A stretch of 64,000 nucleotides of DNA, from NCBI GenBank assembly GCA_041496385.1, contig JBGQEL010000006.1:222-64221 (forward strand), written 5' to 3'. This document shows, piece by piece, positions 1 through 42,050 of the stretch. Source of the stretch: Candidatus Methylomirabilia bacterium. Its GTDB lineage: Bacteria > Methylomirabilota > Methylomirabilia > Rokubacteriales > CSP1-6. Both the position numbers and the translations under genes were made by a program. The notes under the pieces were generated by a model that did no database searches, was not told the origin of the DNA, and saw only the letters and a program-made list of their open reading frames with translations. Positions within the stretch are counted from its first letter, which is position 1, and the number at the start of each line of letters is the position of its first letter.

Positions 1-106
1 CGCACTGCGCGAGGAACACCTGGCGTCCGCGCTCGGCACTCGGCGAGAGCTGCTGCCGGTCGCAGGCGGCCAGCGTCAGGACGGCGAGCAGCAGCGCGGC
101 GGCGAG
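1..106 (-). CDS. Partial lipoprotein or c-type cytochrome N-terminus; the gene continues beyond the window start
   Basis: The minus-strand translation reads (GTG)LLAAALLLAVLTLAAC-DRQQLSPSAERGRQVFLAQC..., which is a lipoprotein-type signal peptide followed by the start of a mature domain. It is cut off by the window edge and lies in the same orientation as the rubrerythrin/DUF3501 operon. Confidence 0.3.
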
Positions 107-131
107 CAGCACTCTCGACAGGCCGGGCACG

Positions 132-713
132 CTACGCGAGGTCCTCCCGCAGGCTCCGCTTCGTCTCCTCGGACAGCACGGCCCGTGCGCGCTCGTTCGG
201 GTGCTCCACGACGAGCGCGACCTCGGCGGCCGTGAAGATGCGTCGCGCCTCGGGCGGGAGCGCGAAGCGCGCGAAGTGGACCGCGGAGAGCTTGCCACGC
301 TCCTCGTCGGAGTGGCCCGTCTCGAAGTCGCCCACGATGACGTGGGGGCCGACCGTCAGCGTCACGTAGTCGCGCGTGTCGATGCCCAGCAGCTTGTCGA
401 GCACGGGCTTGATCTGCGACGGCTCGGTGATCTCGATCAGCATCGTCGCCGCCAGCTCGCCCGGCCGCGGGAGAAGCGAGTTGTAGACCTCGACCTCCTC
501 GGCGATCTTCGTCTCGTCCACGAGCCGCTCGGCCCTGACCATCTCCTGGATCTGGAACCACACGGTCTCGCGGTTCTCGAACACGAAGTTGAGATAGCGC
601 CCCACCTGGACCCGACGCGGCCGCTTCAGCTCGATGATCTGGCGCCGCCGGGCCTCGCGGACCTTCTCGTACTCCACCAGGTTCAGGATCTCGGACGTCT
701 CCAAGAGCTTCAC
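132..713 (-). CDS. DUF3501 family protein
   Basis: A 193-aa ORF with a clean start. The sequence (MKLLETSEILNLVEYEKVREARRRQIIELKRP...) matches the DUF3501 family, which commonly sits next to HdrD-like Fe-S proteins and rubrerythrin. It lies 4 nt downstream of the upstream gene. Confidence 0.75.
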   Translation of the reverse strand: MKLLETSEILNLVEYEKVREARRRQIIELKRPRRVQVGRYLNFVFENRETVWFQIQEMVRAERLVDETKIAEEVEVYNSLLPRPGELAATMLIEITEPSQIKPVLDKLLGIDTRDYVTLTVGPHVIVGDFETGHSDEERGKLSAVHFARFALPPEARRIFTAAEVALVVEHPNERARAVLSEETKRSLREDLA

Positions 714-717
714 CGCG

Positions 718-2064
718 TCACTCCTCGAGTCCGTAGGCCTCGGCCAGCACCCGGATCGGGTGCTTCGCCGGTCGCCCCGTTCCCTGCTCGATCTGCAGCC
801 CCGCCAGCGGGCAGTCGGTCGACGGCGTCGCGGCGCCGCCGCTCTCGACCGCGTCGAAGAGTGGCTTCGCCAGCTTCATCGACAGCTCGTAGTACTCTTT
901 CTTGAAGCCCCACGTCCCGTCCACCGCTGAGCATTTCTCGACGACGTTCACCGAGCAGCCGGGGATGAGCCTCAGCACCTCGGCCGACTTCACGCCGATG
1001 TTCTGGGCGCGCAGGTGGCAGGGCACGTGGTACGTGACGGCGCCGCCCGGTCTGGTGAAATTCGTGTCGAGCCGGCCCTCGGCGTGGAGCTTCGCCAGGT
1101 ACTCGAAGAGGTCGCGCGTGTTCGCCGCGACGAGCTTCGCGTCCTCCCCGCCGTCGAGCCACGGGTACTCCTGCTTGAGCATGTAGCTGCACGTCGGCCC
1201 CGGCACGACGATCTCGCGCCCCTCGCGGACCGCCGCCGCGAGGCTCCGCACGTTCTCCTTGATCAGCGCCTTCGCCTCGTCCACGGCGCCGCCGTCGAGG
1301 TAGGGCATGCCGCAGCAGCGCTGCGCCGGTACCGACACGTCGACGCCGTTCCGCTCGAGCACGCGCACCGCCGCCCGCCCGGTGGCGGGGTCGTTGTAGT
1401 CCACCGTGCACGTATGAAAGAGCGCGACTTTGTAAGCGGCGGGCACCCGGGCTGGCGCCACGCCCGCCGCGCTCGCGCGCTCCCCGGACGCCGCCACGCC
1501 CGCCGCTTTTACGCGTGCCGCGGACTCCCCGCGCCGGGTCCGTCGCCTGAACCAGGAACTGAACGTCTCCCGGTGGAACTTCGGGAGGTTGCGATCCTTG
1601 TGGATCCCGGTGACCGCCTGCATGAAGGCGCGGTGCACCGCCAGCTCGTTCATCCAGTTCGAGAGCGGTGCCGCGAGGCTTCCCAGCTTGCCGACGAGCT
1701 CGGTGTTACCCAGCATCCTGTCCTGCCGGGTCACGCCGCGCCGCCGGGATTCGGCGGCCCGCGCGCGCAGCATCAGGCGCGGGAAGTCCACCTCCCACCG
1801 GTGCGGCGCGGTGTACGGGCAGTGGTTGAAGCAGAGCTTGCACTGATAGCAGAGATCGACGACTTCCTTGACGTCGGCCGCGGGCAGCTTCTCGACGTCG
1901 CCATCCACCGCGTCGACGTCCAGGCGGTCGAAGAGCACCTTGAACGAGGGGCAGAGCGGCAGGCAACGCCGGCAGCCGGAGCAGATGTCGTAGACTCTCC
2001 GCAGCTCCGTATCGACGGCCGACGGATCCCAGAACTCCGGCGACTTCAGATCGAGCGTTCCCAT
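718..2064 (-). CDS. (Fe-S)-binding protein, heterodisulfide reductase subunit D / GlcF-like, with CCG domains
   Basis: The N-terminus MGTLDLKSPEFWDP...CSGCRRCLPLCPSF carries a 4Fe-4S Cys motif, followed by a second C-x2-C-x2-C...CP motif and a CCGMPYLDGG (CCG domain). The start was chosen at the internal ATG at 2062-2064, because the track's longer ORF has an Arg/Ser-rich extension that is a GC artefact. Confidence 0.8.
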   Translation of the reverse strand: MGTLDLKSPEFWDPSAVDTELRRVYDICSGCRRCLPLCPSFKVLFDRLDVDAVDGDVEKLPAADVKEVVDLCYQCKLCFNHCPYTAPHRWEVDFPRLMLRARAAESRRRGVTRQDRMLGNTELVGKLGSLAAPLSNWMNELAVHRAFMQAVTGIHKDRNLPKFHRETFSSWFRRRTRRGESAARVKAAGVAASGERASAAGVAPARVPAAYKVALFHTCTVDYNDPATGRAAVRVLERNGVDVSVPAQRCCGMPYLDGGAVDEAKALIKENVRSLAAAVREGREIVVPGPTCSYMLKQEYPWLDGGEDAKLVAANTRDLFEYLAKLHAEGRLDTNFTRPGGAVTYHVPCHLRAQNIGVKSAEVLRLIPGCSVNVVEKCSAVDGTWGFKKEYYELSMKLAKPLFDAVESGGAATPSTDCPLAGLQIEQGTGRPAKHPIRVLAEAYGLEE

Positions 2065-2131
2065 GGTCGCGCGCGGGCGATGTCGCCTCGGCGCGGGGTC
2101 GGATGCGGTCATCCGGCCCCGCCCTGGCGAG

Positions 2132-2581
2132 CTAGATCGCTTCTGCGGGGTCCTTGCCTGCGATCTGCGTGAGGCCCTTGCTGAACCGGCCGGCGTGCGA
2201 CTTCTCCGCCTTCGCGAGCGTCTCGAACCACTCGGCGAGCTCGGCGAAGCCTTCGTCACGCGCCGTCTTCGCCATGCCCGGATACATCTGCGTGTACTCG
2301 TACGTCTCGCCGGTGACGGCCGACTTCAGATTCTTCTCCGTCTTGCCGATCGGCTCGCCCGTCACCGGGTCGCCGACCTCTTTGAGGAAGTCGAGATGAC
2401 CGAAGGCGTGGCCCGTCTCGGCGTCGGCCGTGTCCTTGAAGAGGCCCGCGATGTCCGGAAAGCCCTCGATGTCCGCGACGCGCGCGAAGTAGAGGTACCG
2501 GCGGTTCGCCTGCGACTCGCCGGCGAACGCCTCCTTGAGGTTCTCGAAGCTCTTGGTGCCCTTGAGGTTCTTGCCTGCCAT
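2132..2581 (-). CDS. Rubrerythrin-family diiron protein without a rubredoxin domain
   Basis: A 149-aa protein with four E..E/H ferritin-like ligand motifs ([41 protein letters not shown]). There is no C-terminal CxxC rubredoxin module. Confidence 0.85.
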
Positions 2582-2584
2582 GTG

Positions 2585-3034
2585 TCAGCTCCTCCTTTGC
2601 CCTTTCGGGGACGTTCGACCGCCGCGCCGGCGGCAGCCGCCGCAGCGGCCGTAGTACTCGGTGCGCTGGTTCAGGACTTCGAAGCCCGTGTGCGCCGCGA
2701 CCCGCGCGCGTTCGACCCGCCCTCGGCGCGCCGGCACATCGTAGATCCGGCCGCACGCGAGGCACGTGAAGTGATCGTGGGGCGCGATGTTGCCGTCGAA
2801 GCGCACGCCGACCGCGTCCGCGCGCTCGTTCAGGAATCCCTCGCCGGCCAGTACGCGCAGGTTGCGGTAGACGGTCGCGAGGCTCACCCGCGGAAGTCGT
2901 CGCCGCACGCGGCGATACACGAACGCGGCGGTCGGGTGGACGTCGGTCGCGCGGACGACGTCGAGGATGAGGCGCCGGGGCTTCGTGAGCCGAAGCCCGC
3001 GCGCCCGCAGCGTGTCGTCGCCGGCGCCCGCCAT
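2585..3034 (-). CDS. Fur family transcriptional regulator (PerR-like)
   Basis: A 150-aa protein starting MAGAGDDTLRARGLRLTKPRRLILDVV... with HDHFTCLACGRIYDV, which is the Fur-family DNA-binding and metal-site pattern. It is the first gene of the operon, ahead of rubrerythrin. Confidence 0.8.
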   Translation of the reverse strand: MAGAGDDTLRARGLRLTKPRRLILDVVRATDVHPTAAFVYRRVRRRLPRVSLATVYRNLRVLAGEGFLNERADAVGVRFDGNIAPHDHFTCLACGRIYDVPARRGRVERARVAAHTGFEVLNQRTEYYGRCGGCRRRGGRTSPKGQRRS

Positions 3035-3043
3035 CGCGCCAGG

Positions 3044-3068
3044 GTTGTTTTTAGTAATCATTCTCAAC
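3044..3068. promoter_or_regulatory. Fur/PerR-box-like AT-rich element: TTGTTgagaatgattactaaaAACAA inverted repeat with GAnAAT-type hexamers
   Basis: This is the only AT-rich stretch in the 3.0-3.2 kb intergenic region. It lies between the -10 and the ATG of the fur-like gene and upstream of the divergent uvrA. The outer arms TTGTT/AACAA are complementary, and the core GAGAATGATTACTAA resembles Fur-box hexamer repeats. Confidence 0.4.
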
Positions 3069-3080
3069 AAGCACGAGCGC

Positions 3081-3109
3081 AGTCTACCGGGCGGCCGCGC
3101 GCGTGTCAA
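3081..3109 (-). promoter_or_regulatory. Sigma70-type promoter for the perR-rubrerythrin operon: -35 TTGACA, 17-nt spacer, -10 TAGACT on the minus strand
   Basis: The reverse complement reads cTTGACAcgcgcgcggccgcccggTAGACTgcgc. This is a perfect -35 hexamer, a 17-nt spacer and a -10 hexamer with 4/6 matches. Confidence 0.5.
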
Positions 3110-3178
3110 GCGCGGCGCCGCACGCTGGCGCCGTGGCGCCCGTTCCAGTAGACTACCCACCTCAGGAGGACAGCTCGA

Positions 3179-5965
3179 ATGGCCCAGCCCCCCGGGCTCC
3201 TGATTCGTGGAGCCCGCCAGAACAACCTCAAGAACATCTCGCTCGAGATTCCCCACGACAAGCTCACCGTCGTCACCGGCGTGTCGGGCTCGGGCAAGTC
3301 GTCGCTGGCGTTCGACACGCTCTTCGCCGAGGGCCAGTGGCGCTACATCGAGTCGCTCTCCACCTACGCGCGGATGTTCCTGGACCGCGTCGACCGTCCG
3401 GACGTGGACCGCATCGAGCATATCCGCCCCGCCGTCGCGCTGGAGCAGAAGAACCCGGTCCGGACGGCGCGCTCCACGGTCGGCACCGCCACCGAGGTCT
3501 ACGACTACCTGCGCCTGCTCTACGCGAAGATCGGCCGGGTCCACTGCCCCCGGTGCGGCTCGCCCGCGGCCTCGCACTCGCCCGACTCGATCGTGAGCGC
3601 GCTCCTGGCCGAGCATCCCGGCGCCCGGGCGCTGATCACGTTCGGCCTGTCCGTGCCGGCGGGCCTGCCGCCCGCGGAGCTCTGGGCCGGCCTCACCCGG
3701 CGCGGCTTCGCCCGGGTGCGCGTGAACGGCGCCATCCTCGATCTGACGTCCCCGCCGCCCGCGGACTTCGGCGAGCACAAGGAGATCTCGGTCGTCCTCG
3801 ACCGCGTCGTGCTCGAATCGTCGCATCGCGCGCGGATCGCCGAGTCGGTCGAGGCGGCGCTGCGCGAGGGCGGCGGGCAGGTCGAGGTCGAGGTGCTCGG
3901 CCACGGCAGCCGCGCGTTCGCCGAGGACTACCGGTGCAGCGGGTGCGGGACGCTCCTCGAGCGCCCCCAGCCGCTCCTCTTCTCGTTCAACCACCCGCTC
4001 GGCGCCTGTCCCGAGTGCAAGGGGTTCGGCAACGTGCTCAAGTACGACGAGGCCCTCGTCGTGCCCGACCGCGCGCGGACGCTCGCCGAGGGCGCGGTCG
4101 AGCCGTGGACGCACCCGTCGGGCAAGTGGTACCAGAAGGAGCTGATCAAGGCCGCGCGCCGCCGGAAGATCGACCCCGACACGCCCTGGGAGAAGCTCGG
4201 GGACAAGGCGCGCCGGGTCGTCTACGACGGCGACGGAAGCTTCCCCGGCATCACGGGCTTCTTCGAGGAGATCGAGTCCTATCGCTACAAGCTCCACGTG
4301 CGGGTGTTCCTCTCCCGCTACCGGAGCCAGTCCCGCTGCCAGACGTGCCGTGGCGCCCGCCTCAAGCCCGCGGCGCTCGCGGTGCGCGTCGCGGGTCTCA
4401 CGATCTCCGAGTTCACCGCGCTCACGATCGAGGGCGCGTCGCGTCTGCTGGCCGATCTCAAGCTCACCGCGTGGGAGGCGGTCGTCGCGCGCGAGATCAT
4501 GCGCCAGCTGACCGCGAAGCTGACGTTCCTCCTGCGCGTGGGCCTCGGCTACCTCACGCTCTCGCGCCAGACGCGCACCCTGTCCGGCGGAGAGGCGCAG
4601 CGGATCAACCTGGCCAACCAGCTCGGCTCGCAGCTCGTCGGCACCCTCTACGTCCTCGACGAGCCCTCGATCGGCCTCCACCCCCGGGACACGATGCGGC
4701 TCGTGGATCTCTGCCGGGAGCTGGCGCAGGCGGGCAACACCGTCGTCGTCGTCGAGCACGACCGTGAGTTCATCGCCGCCGCCGACCACGTCGTCGAGCT
4801 GGGGCCCGGCTCCGGCGACCGGGGCGGCGAGATCGTCTTCAGCGGCCCGCAGGCCGAGTTCCAGAAGGCGACGCGTTCGCTGACCGCCCGGTACGTCACG
4901 GGGCGCGAATCGATTCCGGTGCCGCTGTTCCGGCGGAGCGGGCGGCGCCATCTGTCGCTCGCGGGCGCGCGCGAGCACAACCTCAAGGGCGTGACCCTCC
5001 GGATCCCGCTCCACACGCTCACCGTGGTCACGGGCGTCTCGGGCTCCGGCAAGTCCACGCTCGTGCGCGACACGCTCTACCGGGCGGTCGCGCGCGCCTT
5101 CAAGACGGAGTTCGCGCCGCCGGGCGCGTACGACGCGCTCGCCGGCCTCGAGTACCTGAAGGGCGCGCGGCTGATCGATCAGGAGCCGATCGGCCGCACG
5201 CCGCGTTCGAACCCCGTCACCTACGTGAAGGCCTTCGACGAGATCCGGAAGCTCTTCGCCGCGCTGCCGCGCGCGCAGGCGCTGGGCCTCGACGCCGGCG
5301 CCTTCTCGTTCAACGTGCCGGGCGGCCGCTGCGAGTCGTGCCAGGGCGACGGGTTCCAGAAGCTCGAGATGTACTTCTTCGAGGACGTCTACGTCAGCTG
5401 CCAGGAGTGCGAGGGGCGCCGTTACCGTCCCGACGTGCTCGGCGTGAAGCACCGCGGGCGCTCGATCAGCGACGTGCTCCAGATGACGGTCGACGACGCC
5501 GTCGAGTTCTTCGCGGCGCAGGGCGCGCTGGCGCGCCGCCTACGCGTGCTGCAGGACGTGGGCCTCGGCTACCTGCGGCTCGGCCAGCCGGCGACGACGC
5601 TCTCGGGCGGCGAGGCGCAACGGCTCAAGATCGCCGCCGAGCTCGGCGCGCGCGAGTCGGGCGAGATGCTCTACATCATGGACGAGCCGACGACGGGCCT
5701 GCATCTCGACGACGTCAAGAAGCTCCTCGGCGTGCTCAACCGCCTGGTGGACGCGGGGAACACGCTCCTTGTCGTCGAGCACCATCTCGACGTCATCAAG
5801 TCGGCCGACCACGTCGTCGACCTCGGCCCCGAGGGCGGCGAGGAGGGCGGTGACATCGTCGCGGAAGGCACGCCCGAGGCGGTCGCCCAGACGCCGGGGT
5901 CCTACACGGGCAAGTTCCTCGCGGAGGTCCTCCCGAAGCTCAACGGCAAGAACGGGCGCGCCTGA
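3179..5965 (+). CDS. uvrA: Excinuclease ABC subunit A
   Basis: A 928-aa protein with [25 protein letters not shown] and CxxC zinc modules, and a second Walker [15 protein letters not shown]. An AGGAGG ribosome-binding site lies 7 nt upstream of the ATG. Confidence 0.95.
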
Positions 5966-5967
5966 GC

Positions 5968-7179
5968 GTGCCCGCGTTTCGCGGCTGGATCATCGTCGCG
6001 GGCGCGTTCCTCGTCTTCTTCTCGGCCTACGGCGCGCAGTACTCATTCGGCGTGTTCTTCTCCGCGCTGCTGGACGAGTTCCACTGGAGCCGTGCGAGCC
6101 TCGCCGGCGTCTTCTCGCTCTACGCGCTCCTCTATCCCGTCGTGGGGTTCCCGGCGGGCCGGCTCACCGATCGCTGGGGGCCGCGCGCCGTGATCGCCAC
6201 CGGCGCGATCTTCCTCGGTGTGGGGCTCGCCGGCATGTCGCTGGTCACCCGGCTCTGGCAGCCCTACGTGCTCTACGGCGGGATCGCGGCGCTCGGCATG
6301 GGCACGGCGTACGTGCCGTGCAGCACGACCGTCGTGAAGTGGTTCGTGCGGCGCCGCGGGCTCGCCGTCGGGATCGCCTCGAGCGGCGGGAGCGTCGGGA
6401 CGTTCGTTCTACCCCCGCTCGCCCAGGTCCTGGTGGCCGCCGTCGGCTGGCGCGCGGCCTACGTGATCTTCGGCGCGGCGATCTTCATCGTCCTGAGCCT
6501 CGTGGCGCGCCTGATGCGCCGCGATCCCGAGAGCGTCGGGCTCCACCCCGACGGCGACGCGGCACCGATCGCCGTGGATACCGTCGCGCGGGGCTGGCCG
6601 GTCCGGCGGGCCCTCCGCTCGCGCGCGTTCTGGATGCTCGGCGCCGCGTTTGCCGCAACGTGGATGCCGGTCTTCATCCCCCTCGTGCACATGGTCCCGT
6701 TCGCGCGCGACCTCGGCTACTCGCCGCTGACCGGCGCCTGGGTCGTCTCGACGCTCGGTGCCGGCGCCGTCATCGGCCGGCTCGTGATGGGCGGCGTCTC
6801 GGACCGGATCGGGCGGAAGCCGGCCATCGCCATTTCGATGGCGCTCCAGGCCGTCGGCTTTCTCGGGTTTCTCCTGGCGGGGCTCGGGCCGGCGCTGCTC
6901 TTCGGCACGGCGCTCGTCTTCGGCTACTCCTACGGCGCGACCTCGACCCTCTTTCCGGCCATCGTCGGCGACTTCTTCGGCCGCGGCCAGGCGGGCGCGC
7001 TCGTCGGCGTCCTCTTCGCGATGGCGGGATCGATGGGCGGCTGGGGGCCGCTGATCGCGGGCGCGCTCTACGACGCGACCGGCGGCTACGACCTCACGTG
7101 GCTCCTCGCCGCCGGCCTGAACGTCCTGGCCCTCCTGCTGCTCGCGCTGTCCCGGGCGCCGCGCGAGGCGCGCGCGTGA
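5968..7179 (+). CDS. MFS transporter
   Basis: A 403-aa protein with 12 predicted TM helices and an MFS signature (GRLTDRWGPR). It starts at a GTG. Confidence 0.8.
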   Translation: MPAFRGWIIVAGAFLVFFSAYGAQYSFGVFFSALLDEFHWSRASLAGVFSLYALLYPVVGFPAGRLTDRWGPRAVIATGAIFLGVGLAGMSLVTRLWQPYVLYGGIAALGMGTAYVPCSTTVVKWFVRRRGLAVGIASSGGSVGTFVLPPLAQVLVAAVGWRAAYVIFGAAIFIVLSLVARLMRRDPESVGLHPDGDAAPIAVDTVARGWPVRRALRSRAFWMLGAAFAATWMPVFIPLVHMVPFARDLGYSPLTGAWVVSTLGAGAVIGRLVMGGVSDRIGRKPAIAISMALQAVGFLGFLLAGLGPALLFGTALVFGYSYGATSTLFPAIVGDFFGRGQAGALVGVLFAMAGSMGGWGPLIAGALYDATGGYDLTWLLAAGLNVLALLLLALSRAPREARA

Positions 7180-41995: not shown

Positions 41996-42050
41996 TAGGA
42001 TGGTTTTCGATCTTGAGAATCAGCACCCAGAAAGTTCACAAGGAGGTGTC

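Follow-up and report, generated by a model that had tools for sequence, protein, structure and literature searches.

A conserved gene cluster in a Rokubacteria/Methylomirabilota bacterium points to a PerR-like, autoregulated peroxide defence operon with an aerobic-type rubrerythrin

The stretch of 64,000 nucleotides from contig JBGQEL010000006.1 (assembly GCA_041496385.1, Candidatus Methylomirabilia bacterium) that we have analysed, hereafter referred to as the window, begins with five closely packed genes on the minus strand, which encode a regulator of the Fur/PerR family (perR), a rubrerythrin (rbr), an Fe-S protein with CCG domain of the kind named RFO (rfo), a DUF3501 protein and, truncated by the window edge, a small cytochrome c. 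We consider it probable, at about 65%, that these genes constitute an autoregulated, peroxide-inducible defence operon with a rubrerythrin peroxidase module. The cluster itself, with its promoter and an operator-like box, is confirmed: coordinates and domain searches bear out the tight five-gene arrangement with a Fur/PerR-family regulator in first place that had been described in a first-pass annotation of the same DNA (Table 1). The gaps of 3-67 nucleotides given there are correct in their upper value but not in their lower, as the genes are separated by 3, 67, 4 and 1 nucleotides in order.

A search of 6 kb for sigma-70-like promoters identified a sole site, which lies upstream of perR and consists of the hexamers TTGACA and TAGACT at a distance of 17 nucleotides (3109..3081), with 0.2 sites expected. 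The GC fraction drops to 0.43 at 3040-3079 within surroundings of about 0.75, and this region contains a near-palindromic box (TGAGAATGATTACTA), which agrees with the Fur-family inverted repeat TGATAATnATTATCA at 11 of 14 positions. If up to three mismatches are allowed, it is the single match in 64 kb (3052-3066, 0.02 expected) to the classical Fur 7-1-7 box TGATAATNATTATCA. Scans of the entire window with the family consensus and a position matrix returned one strong match, the box at 3051..3067, and no further regulon members within its 64 kb. A second, weak match (TTGAGAATCAGCACCCA, 42013-42029, plus strand) with a score of 12.9 versus 42 bits, in which only the left half-site is good, is located at the junction of overlapping long open reading frames and is probably due to chance.

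Promoter and box were subsequently compared in 32 orthologous loci of Rokubacteria that were anchored on the box. The -35 hexamer is TTGACA in 31 of these loci and TTGACC in the remaining one, the -10 hexamer conforms to TAnnnT in all of them following a spacer of 17-18 nucleotides, and the box is invariably found 11-18 nucleotides 3' of the -10 hexamer with the consensus TTGA(T/G)AATGATT(A/C)C(T/C)AA. The spacer and the DNA flanking these elements vary freely. At positions 5 and 13 of the box, both asymmetric combinations are present and no strict compensatory pattern was detected. Because of these comparative data, which encompass the conservation across loci and the occurrence of the same 17-mer elsewhere, we regard promoter and box as very likely functional. 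The promoter proposed in the first-pass annotation is in this way supported by both scan and conservation. The Fur-box-like AT-rich island noted there is equally genuine, but its assignment to the region between the -10 hexamer and the start codon does not hold, as the box overlaps with the probable start codon.

The latter assignment concerns an ATG within the box (3061..3059). Because in 28 of the 32 orthologous loci translation from this codon would continue without a stop in the reading frame of the regulator, the box most likely covers the true start codon. The segment linking it to the regulator comprises about 7 to 27 codons among loci, and in several of them, such as L004, the in-box ATG is the sole available start. 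As judged from these alignments, the protein most likely consists of 158 residues beginning with MITKNNPGAMAGAG instead of the 149 residues counted from 3034, a start that was also chosen in the gene call of contig L081. With transcription assumed to start about 7 nucleotides after the -10 hexamer, the predicted leader would be as short as about 12 nucleotides and devoid of a Shine-Dalgarno sequence, in a start region that is predicted to be unstructured. Certain loci deviate from the common pattern: in L012 (3550-3616) a short duplication (CCTAACAGAG) places a stop after the in-box ATG, and in L035 and L038 the regulator is encoded in a different reading frame than the in-box codon.

The same box is also found in other contigs. 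An exact scan of metagenome contigs with the 17-mer, whose counts are lower bounds, identified it in at least 19 high-GC contigs, and among the matches listed 17 of 19 belong to the perR-rbr-rfo-DUF3501 operon. In three contigs with a GC fraction of 0.31 (L114, L117 and L139), the sequence TTGACA-17-TAAAAT is followed after 4 nucleotides by the box, and the in-box ATG starts a PerR-like protein. The region 1512-4207 on the minus strand of L114 combines this PerR-like gene with a 98-residue open reading frame resembling the C-terminus of NrdD, a 1-Cys peroxiredoxin, a classical rubrerythrin with rubredoxin domain and a desulfoferrodoxin; with its -10 hexamer positioned just 4 nucleotides before the box, the mRNA of L114 would be nearly leaderless. 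In low-GC homologues the box overlaps with or abuts the -10 hexamer. In L159 and L160 (GC 0.42-0.43), it is flanked by the promoter on one side and by a proper Shine-Dalgarno sequence (AAGGAG) on the other and is hence non-coding; in L160 the PerR-like gene is followed by a rubrerythrin gene in reverse orientation. A further copy of the 17-mer resides in L133 (66% GC, about 1922-1938, minus strand), 20 nucleotides 5' of an open reading frame that resembles the gene of ribosomal protein L28 and starts with MSSICQVTGRKP. Related palindromes are found 30-100 nucleotides 5' of rbr in loci of Acidobacteriota, Bacteroidota and HR30 (TTCGGAATGATTCCTAT in L044, TTAATAACGATTCTTAA in L046, TCGAGAATCATTACTTC in L054 and GTGAGAATAATTCTCGG in L045), two of which are without adjacent regulator gene. 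In Desulfovibrio, the predicted PerR boxes of ahpC (cACAGGAATGATTCCTGTT), rbr2 and perR-rbr-rdl have the same core (PMC545781, Table 7). Separately, L144, a contig with 32% GC, carries the box twice in inverted orientation (TTGATAATGATTCCTAA ... TTAGGATTCATTATTAA) at 2478-2530, beside a divergent Fur-family gene.

These occurrences bear on the question of whether the element is an operator at all. It could instead reflect an unstructured start region without Shine-Dalgarno sequence in combination with a conserved N-terminal MIT(K/N) peptide, as would be compatible with the in-frame ATG in 28 of 32 loci, the short predicted leader and the location of the variable matrix positions 16 and 19 at third codon positions. 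We find this explanation highly improbable, since the six bases 5' of the ATG are as conserved as the bases on its 3' side and the in-box ATT codon is invariant despite a genome of 70% GC. It is also at odds with the copies in L159 and L160, which precede both the ribosome-binding site and the start codon and are hence non-coding, with the palindromes 5' of rbr where no regulator gene follows, and with the resemblance of the element to Fur boxes and to the PerR boxes of Desulfovibrio.

The regulator belongs to the FUR family (PF01475, E 6e-23), and its best match in the PDB is PerR of B. subtilis (2fe3, E 5e-21; 78.6 bits and E 4.8e-21 in an alignment of residues 7-137), with matches named Fur or Zur at 1e-14 or weaker. 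Similarly, the two best-scoring NCBIfam models describe PerR (96 and 89 bits), followed by models of Fur, Irr and Zur at no more than 45 bits. All metal ligands of PerR (H37, D85, H91, H93 and D104) are present as H33, D80, H86, H88 and D99 in the numbering of the 149-residue protein, as are the four cysteines of the structural Zn(Cys)4 site (C96, C99, C136 and C139, equivalent to C91, C94, C131 and C134), and both sets are retained in 32 of 32 orthologues from Rokubacteria and in four rbr-linked regulators of other phyla. The ligands thus support the designation of the regulator as PerR-like in the first-pass annotation. Two positions are known to distinguish PerR from Fur: sensitivity to H2O2 is conferred by Asp104, for which Fur has Glu, and preference for the PerR box over the Fur box by Asn61, for which Fur has Arg (PMC8638851, citing Parent 2013 and Caux-Thang 2015). 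At the position of Asn61, the 32 orthologues and the four regulators of other phyla all contain an Arg (within VYRNLRV), which fits the TGA-type, Fur-box-like half-site of the box (TTGAnAAT). Because of the combination of Asp at 104 with Arg at 61, we would describe the protein as PerR-like in its predicted sensing chemistry and Fur-like in its predicted reading of DNA, and thus as a regulator that shares many but not all features of PerR. The association with peroxide-detoxifying genes is among the shared features, with rubrerythrin at the described locus and peroxiredoxin, rubrerythrin and desulfoferrodoxin beside the homologues that carry the same box.

The Arg at the discriminating position also leaves room for a different assignment, in which the regulator would be a metal sensor similar to Fur, Mur or Zur, the operon would serve iron or metal homeostasis and rubrerythrin would mainly bind or store metals. 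The box, with 11 of 14 positions in agreement with the Fur 7-1-7 consensus, would be compatible with this assignment, and in L133 the identical 17-mer is found upstream of a gene for an L28-like protein, a typical target of Zur. Moreover, the rubrerythrin of B. pseudomallei binds several metals promiscuously (bioRxiv 2025.06.01.657255), although the same source reports peroxidase and catalase activity for sulerythrin-type proteins. A metal sensor nevertheless appears unlikely to us in view of the Asp instead of Glu at position 104 in 36 of 36 regulators examined, of scores against PerR models and structure that are about twice those against Fur or Zur, of the same pair of box and regulator heading operons for peroxiredoxin, rubrerythrin and desulfoferrodoxin, and of an operon that contains no metal-uptake genes.

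A comparison of DUF3501 neighbourhoods, as proposed in the first-pass annotation, was carried out on 80 loci that were returned by a scan with the DUF3501 protein at one genome per species. The 42 closest loci (69-89% identity) all originate from metagenome-assembled genomes of Candidatus Rokubacteria/Methylomirabilota, and the other 38 (41-49% identity) from Acidobacteriota, Aquificota, Bacteroidota, bacteria of Binatia/Myxococcales type and others. The order fur-rbr-rfo-DUF3501 is found in 31 of the 34 loci of Rokubacteria that reach far enough upstream, usually divergent from uvrA. Two loci of the group have lost parts of it: in L023 (5815) the 5' part of perR has been joined by a deletion to a remnant and rbr and rfo are missing, and L025 is without perR and rfo. 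In other phyla we observe three arrangements, namely rbr-rfo-DUF3501 without regulator; rbr-DUF3501 without rfo, or DUF3501 with neither rbr nor rfo detected beside it, as in many loci of Aquificaceae; and rbr-DUF3501-fur in L044, L047 and L052. The combination thus recurs, as had been stated in the first-pass annotation. Its description as lacking an assigned function needs correction, as both the trio of proteins and the hypothesis of electron delivery have already been published (PMC5114695, PMC7050145, bioRxiv 10.1101/2025.06.01.657255).

The proteins of the trio carry the features of the aerobic-type rubrerythrin system, which are a rubrerythrin without rubredoxin domain, an adjacent PF12007 protein and an adjacent COG0247-type CCG Fe-S protein with GlpC as nearest relative. 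The rubrerythrin matches PF02915 (E 5e-30) and, in a weaker overlapping hit, the ferritin-like PF00210; it contains neither cysteines nor a rubredoxin domain and is closest to the structures of B. pseudomallei Rbr (4di0, 3e-60) and sulerythrin (1j30, 1e-56), with classical rubrerythrins at 1e-25. RFO combines PF02754 (CCG, E 6e-16) with 4Fe-4S dicluster domains and contains two CxxCxxCxxxC motifs, one canonical CCG motif and, in the C-terminal half, eight cysteines; it is devoid of hydrophobic segments. Its score exceeds the cut-off of the NCBIfam GlpC model NF008369 (299.9 versus 278 bits) and falls short of that of the GlpC model TIGR03379 (193 versus 280 bits), and its comparison with PDB sequences gave no match at E <=0.01. 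Alternative starts of rfo at ATG 2112 and GTG 2259 were rejected, as MGTLDL at 2064 is the conserved N-terminus of orthologues. The DUF3501 protein matches PF12007 (E 4e-57) and the uncharacterised structure 3fjv (E 1.5e-21). No signal peptide or transmembrane segment was found in any of the three proteins.

The lineage of aerobic-type rubrerythrins was defined by Cardenas et al. (2016; PMC5114695) and shown to be co-localised and to co-occur with DUF3501 as well as with the COG0247 Fe-S oxidoreductase that received the name RFO. That study described the co-occurrence of all three components in 185 genomes, found fusions of RFO with DUF3501, identified GlpC as closest relative of RFO and proposed that RFO would take over electron transfer in place of the lost rubredoxin domain, a hypothesis that recurs together with the trio in PMC7050145 and in a study of B. 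pseudomallei Rbr, where catalase and peroxidase activity of sulerythrin is cited (bioRxiv 10.1101/2025.06.01.657255). For DUF3501, an alignment of 44 diverse members reveals the invariant residues Y15, R19, K30, R33, F45, E46, T50, Q54, E57, M58, E62, E73, Y77, L80, P82, E94, G110, V145 and H171. Because most of these members lack cysteines, a role of DUF3501 in Fe-S or dithiol redox chemistry is excluded by the alignment, and the options left would be a metal site formed by carboxylates and histidine, or a function of the protein as an adaptor that links rubrerythrin to RFO.

With respect to expression, the genes for rubrerythrin, DUF3501 and cytochrome c are, on reading of the sequence, preceded by GGAGG-type ribosome-binding sites within the 3' end of the respective upstream gene (for rbr, GGAGGAG inside the end of the regulator gene), and no recognisable Shine-Dalgarno sequence precedes the regulator gene or rfo. 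The spacer between rbr and rfo contains a GC-rich stem-loop. A fragment of 81 nucleotides (2060-2140) folds with a minimum free energy of -41.2 kcal/mol and a centroid of -35.6 kcal/mol that essentially corresponds to the stem-loop at 2083-2130; its z-score is -1.9, and 7 of 200 shuffled sequences fold as well. In most relatives, the junction is widened to a spacer of 150-300 nucleotides with GC hairpins of its own. These spacers share a partly conserved segment (GGGAACGGGTCC...CGTGCGGTAGCTAAACGC).

The five genes might for this reason not be expressed as one even unit, if the hairpin attenuates or terminates transcription or stabilises a processed perR-rbr mRNA, with rfo, DUF3501 and the cytochrome gene expressed at much lower levels or from their own promoter. 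Such uneven expression would be in line with the stability of the stem-loop, with the equivalent hairpins and long spacers in most relatives and with the missing Shine-Dalgarno sequence of rfo, and we regard it as a possibility to be reckoned with, though still a doubtful one. The stem-loop is not followed by a U tract, a scan for intrinsic terminators on the coding strand found none within the cluster, the z-score is just -1.9, a second promoter-like site was not detected in the 6 kb scanned and the gene order is strictly conserved. We infer that the five genes are probably co-transcribed.

In the mechanism that we propose for the operon, a dimeric PerR-like repressor with Fe2+ or Mn2+ bound to its regulatory site would bind to the 17-bp box, which is expected to span about +8 to +24 and to include the start codon of the regulator itself, and thereby block the strong sigma-70 promoter. 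By analogy with B. subtilis PerR, H2O2 would oxidise the iron-bound His ligands, leading to the release of the repressor and to the transcription of perR-rbr-rfo-DUF3501-cytc. The sulerythrin-type diiron rubrerythrin would then reduce H2O2 to water in the cytoplasm and, following the published hypothesis, its diferric form would be re-reduced via the GlpC/HdrD-like RFO, with DUF3501 acting as a cofactor-poor adaptor or metal-binding partner. Relatives with CCG domain suggest quinol or thiol as candidates for the primary donor. The cytochrome c would be co-expressed and exported, probably to serve a separate co-regulated function in the membrane or periplasm, possibly in conjunction with a short DUF989 protein.

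Several observations weigh against this proposal. The symmetry of the box is incomplete, with 6 of 8 symmetric pairs in our own reading and the described 11 of 14 matches to the Fur 7-1-7 consensus, and its conservation may partly reflect the coding of M-I-T/P-K/N. The scores of the regulator stay below the equivalog cut-offs of PerR (NF047406, 96.3 versus 200 bits; NF052545, 89.2 versus 180 bits), and its Arg at the position of Asn61 is a feature of Fur. As illustrated by the Zur-type context in L133, a Fur-family box by itself does not identify the effector. DUF3501 offers neither a conserved cysteine nor a recognisable cofactor motif, and no functional analogue emerged from the fold of an AlphaFold2 model with a mean predicted local distance difference test score of 68.7, a model that does not suffice for a functional assignment and was calculated from a shallow alignment, as the homologue search had returned only close relatives of 81-100% identity. 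The cytochrome resides in a different compartment than the rubrerythrin module and, finally, the hairpin and the long spacers in relatives may uncouple or lower the expression of the distal genes.

Table 1. Position of genes and predicted regulatory elements at the perR-rbr locus of the window.
Feature	Position	Strand	Basis or remark
-35 hexamer TTGACA	3104..3109	minus	promoter scan; kept across orthologous loci
-10 hexamer TAGACT	3081..3086	minus	17-nt spacer behind TTGACA
Operator-like box TTGAGAATGATTACTAA, Fur/PerR-family near-palindrome	3051..3067	minus	13 nt 3' of -10
PerR-like Fur-family regulator	2585..3061	minus	158 aa from the most likely start, the in-box ATG; gene-caller start ATG 3034 gives 149 aa
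Aerobic-type (sulerythrin-like) rubrerythrin, 149 aa	2132..2581	minus	PF02915
GC-rich stem-loop in rbr-rfo spacer, without U tract	2083..2130	minus	folding
RFO, Fe-S/CCG protein with two [4Fe-4S] motifs and CCG domain	718..2064	minus	PF02754
DUF3501 protein, 193 aa, no Cys	132..713	minus	PF12007
Predicted small lipoprotein monoheme cytochrome c, 5' part of gene (43 codons), GTG start at 130	1..130	minus	cut by window edge
uvrA	3179..5965		divergent from perR-rbr operon

On the other side of the promoter, the region upstream of uvrA (3110-3178, plus strand) contains CTGGCG-18-TAGACT at 3125-3154, followed by AGGAGG, which together form a possible uvrA promoter. A GCGCCAG motif just 5' of the -35 hexamer of perR is conserved in many loci of Rokubacteria.

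The window covers 43 codons of the fifth gene (VPGLSRVLLAAALLLAVLTLAACDRQQ...FLAQC), and a Pfam search with this fragment gave no match. Its identity was revealed by contig L081 (GCA_041491865.1), which is 99-99.9% identical to the window and encodes a complete protein of 109 residues with the same N-terminus, a lipobox (LAAC), a CVSCH motif and a conserved segment containing PKRPTNVMPP, and by the orthologue in L001, which matches PF13442 and PF00034 just above the cut-offs. Because of this full-length copy and the Pfam matches of the orthologue, we assign the gene to a small, presumably membrane-anchored periplasmic lipoprotein monoheme cytochrome c. The cytochrome postulated in the first-pass annotation was thus guessed correctly, but it becomes apparent from the related contigs and not from the 43 codons in the window. 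A corresponding gene follows DUF3501 in 40 of 40 loci of Rokubacteria with downstream sequence, often with an overlap of 4 nucleotides (GTGA), and in 0 of 38 loci of other phyla. Because it is a predicted periplasmic lipoprotein and rubrerythrin, RFO and DUF3501 are devoid of signal peptides and transmembrane segments, the cytochrome cannot be a direct partner of the cytoplasmic electron-delivery module.

Just past position 1 of the window, a gene for a short membrane protein of PF06181 (Urate_ox_N/DUF989) is convergent to the cytochrome gene. It is located at 5977-6687 on the minus strand of L081 and at 6971-7639 of L001 and was found in 38 loci of Rokubacteria, as well as at 7816-8700 of L047 and 7805-8668 of L052. 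The latter two, of Binatia/Myxococcales type, contain rbr-DUF3501-perR and a gene for a lipoprotein, followed by the convergent DUF989 gene, and lack rfo; the lipoprotein appears cupredoxin-like by eye, based on its HNVH...CDVHPWM motif, and gave no match in Pfam. The recurrence of a periplasmic carrier and a short DUF989 protein beside perR, rbr and DUF3501 in two lineages provides two independent observations and is suggestive. Full-length DUF989 fused to cytochrome c is known as the membrane urate oxidase PuuD, and the short four-helix form is without known function (PMC4562309). The locus of Rokubacteria resembles PuuD in that it combines a c-type cytochrome with a DUF989 membrane domain, here as products of neighbouring convergent genes. 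Unlike in PuuD, the DUF989 protein is of the short form, which is described as lacking the cytochrome domain and occurring in another gene context (PMC4562309), and there are no purine-catabolism genes near the locus. It would be a long shot to assume that carrier and short DUF989 form a transmembrane conduit from cytochrome c or the quinone pool to RFO, DUF3501 and rubrerythrin, resembling PuuD in reverse or HdrE-HdrD, with the cytochrome c as carrier in Rokubacteria and the cupredoxin-like lipoprotein in L047 and L052. If true, such a conduit would answer the long-standing question of where aerobic-type rubrerythrins obtain their electrons and assign a function to the short DUF989 family.

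With our analysis, Rokubacteria/Methylomirabilota, an uncultured phylum that is abundant in soil, join the groups in which the aerobic-type rubrerythrin system is found. Three elements go beyond the known core trio, namely the predicted control of PerR type, a cytochrome c specific to the phylum and the conserved convergent gene of a short DUF989 protein. The predicted PerR-like repressor with its combination of Asp104 and Arg61 and the 17-bp candidate operator, which is conserved from Rokubacteria with 70% GC to thermophile-like contigs with 31% GC, would supply the regulatory circuit missing from the description of 2016, and peroxide regulons of metagenome-assembled genomes could become predictable from the pair of operator and regulator. 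The questions of who reduces rubredoxin-less rubrerythrins and what DUF3501 does are little advanced by our work and would be better addressed in cultured Burkholderia or Nitrosomonas. The association of the cytochrome with short DUF989 is no more than a lead.

Among known systems, the aerobic-type rubrerythrin system (PMC5114695) bears the closest relation to the locus in its rubredoxin-less rubrerythrin, its GlpC-like COG0247 Fe-S/CCG protein and its PF12007 protein, in the order rbr-rfo-DUF3501 and in the role proposed for RFO as electron donor replacing the rubredoxin domain. The Rokubacteria add to this trio a PerR-like gene at the beginning and a lipoprotein cytochrome c at the end. PMC5114695 makes no mention of regulators or cytochromes, its data set apparently does not include Rokubacteria, and our literature search found no paper joining Rokubacteria and rubrerythrin. 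At the level of single proteins, the rubrerythrin, known from sequence, resembles sulerythrin of S. tokodaii (1j30) and B. pseudomallei Rbr (4di0, 8fuh, 9onm) in its size of about 145 residues, its predicted diiron four-helix bundle and the missing rubredoxin domain. RFO shares the two ferredoxin-type [4Fe-4S] motifs and the cysteine-rich CCG region with GlpC, HdrD and GlcF, but it contains a single canonical CCG motif and is encoded without glpA/glpB, hdrE or glcD/E partners nearby.

The regulator has its counterpart in B. subtilis PerR (2fe3, 3f8n), with which it shares the Fur fold, the structural Zn(Cys)4 site and the ligands H37, D85, H91, H93 and D104, and from which it differs by an Arg in place of Asn61, a TGA-type instead of TTA-type half-site and a modest score below the NCBIfam cut-offs. 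With respect to gene organization, the operons perR-rbr-rdl of D. vulgaris and perR-rbr-roo of Geobacter (Rodionov et al., 2004; PMC545781) likewise start with a gene of the PerR family followed by rubrerythrin and contain a palindromic box at the promoter, implying autoregulation, whose core AG/GAnAATnnTTnCT is shared. These operons of anaerobes encode a classical rubrerythrin with rubredoxin domain and rubredoxin-like or Roo partners, whereas the Rokubacteria combine an aerobic-type rubrerythrin with RFO and DUF3501 and carry the box 3' of the -10 hexamer, over the probable start codon of the regulator.

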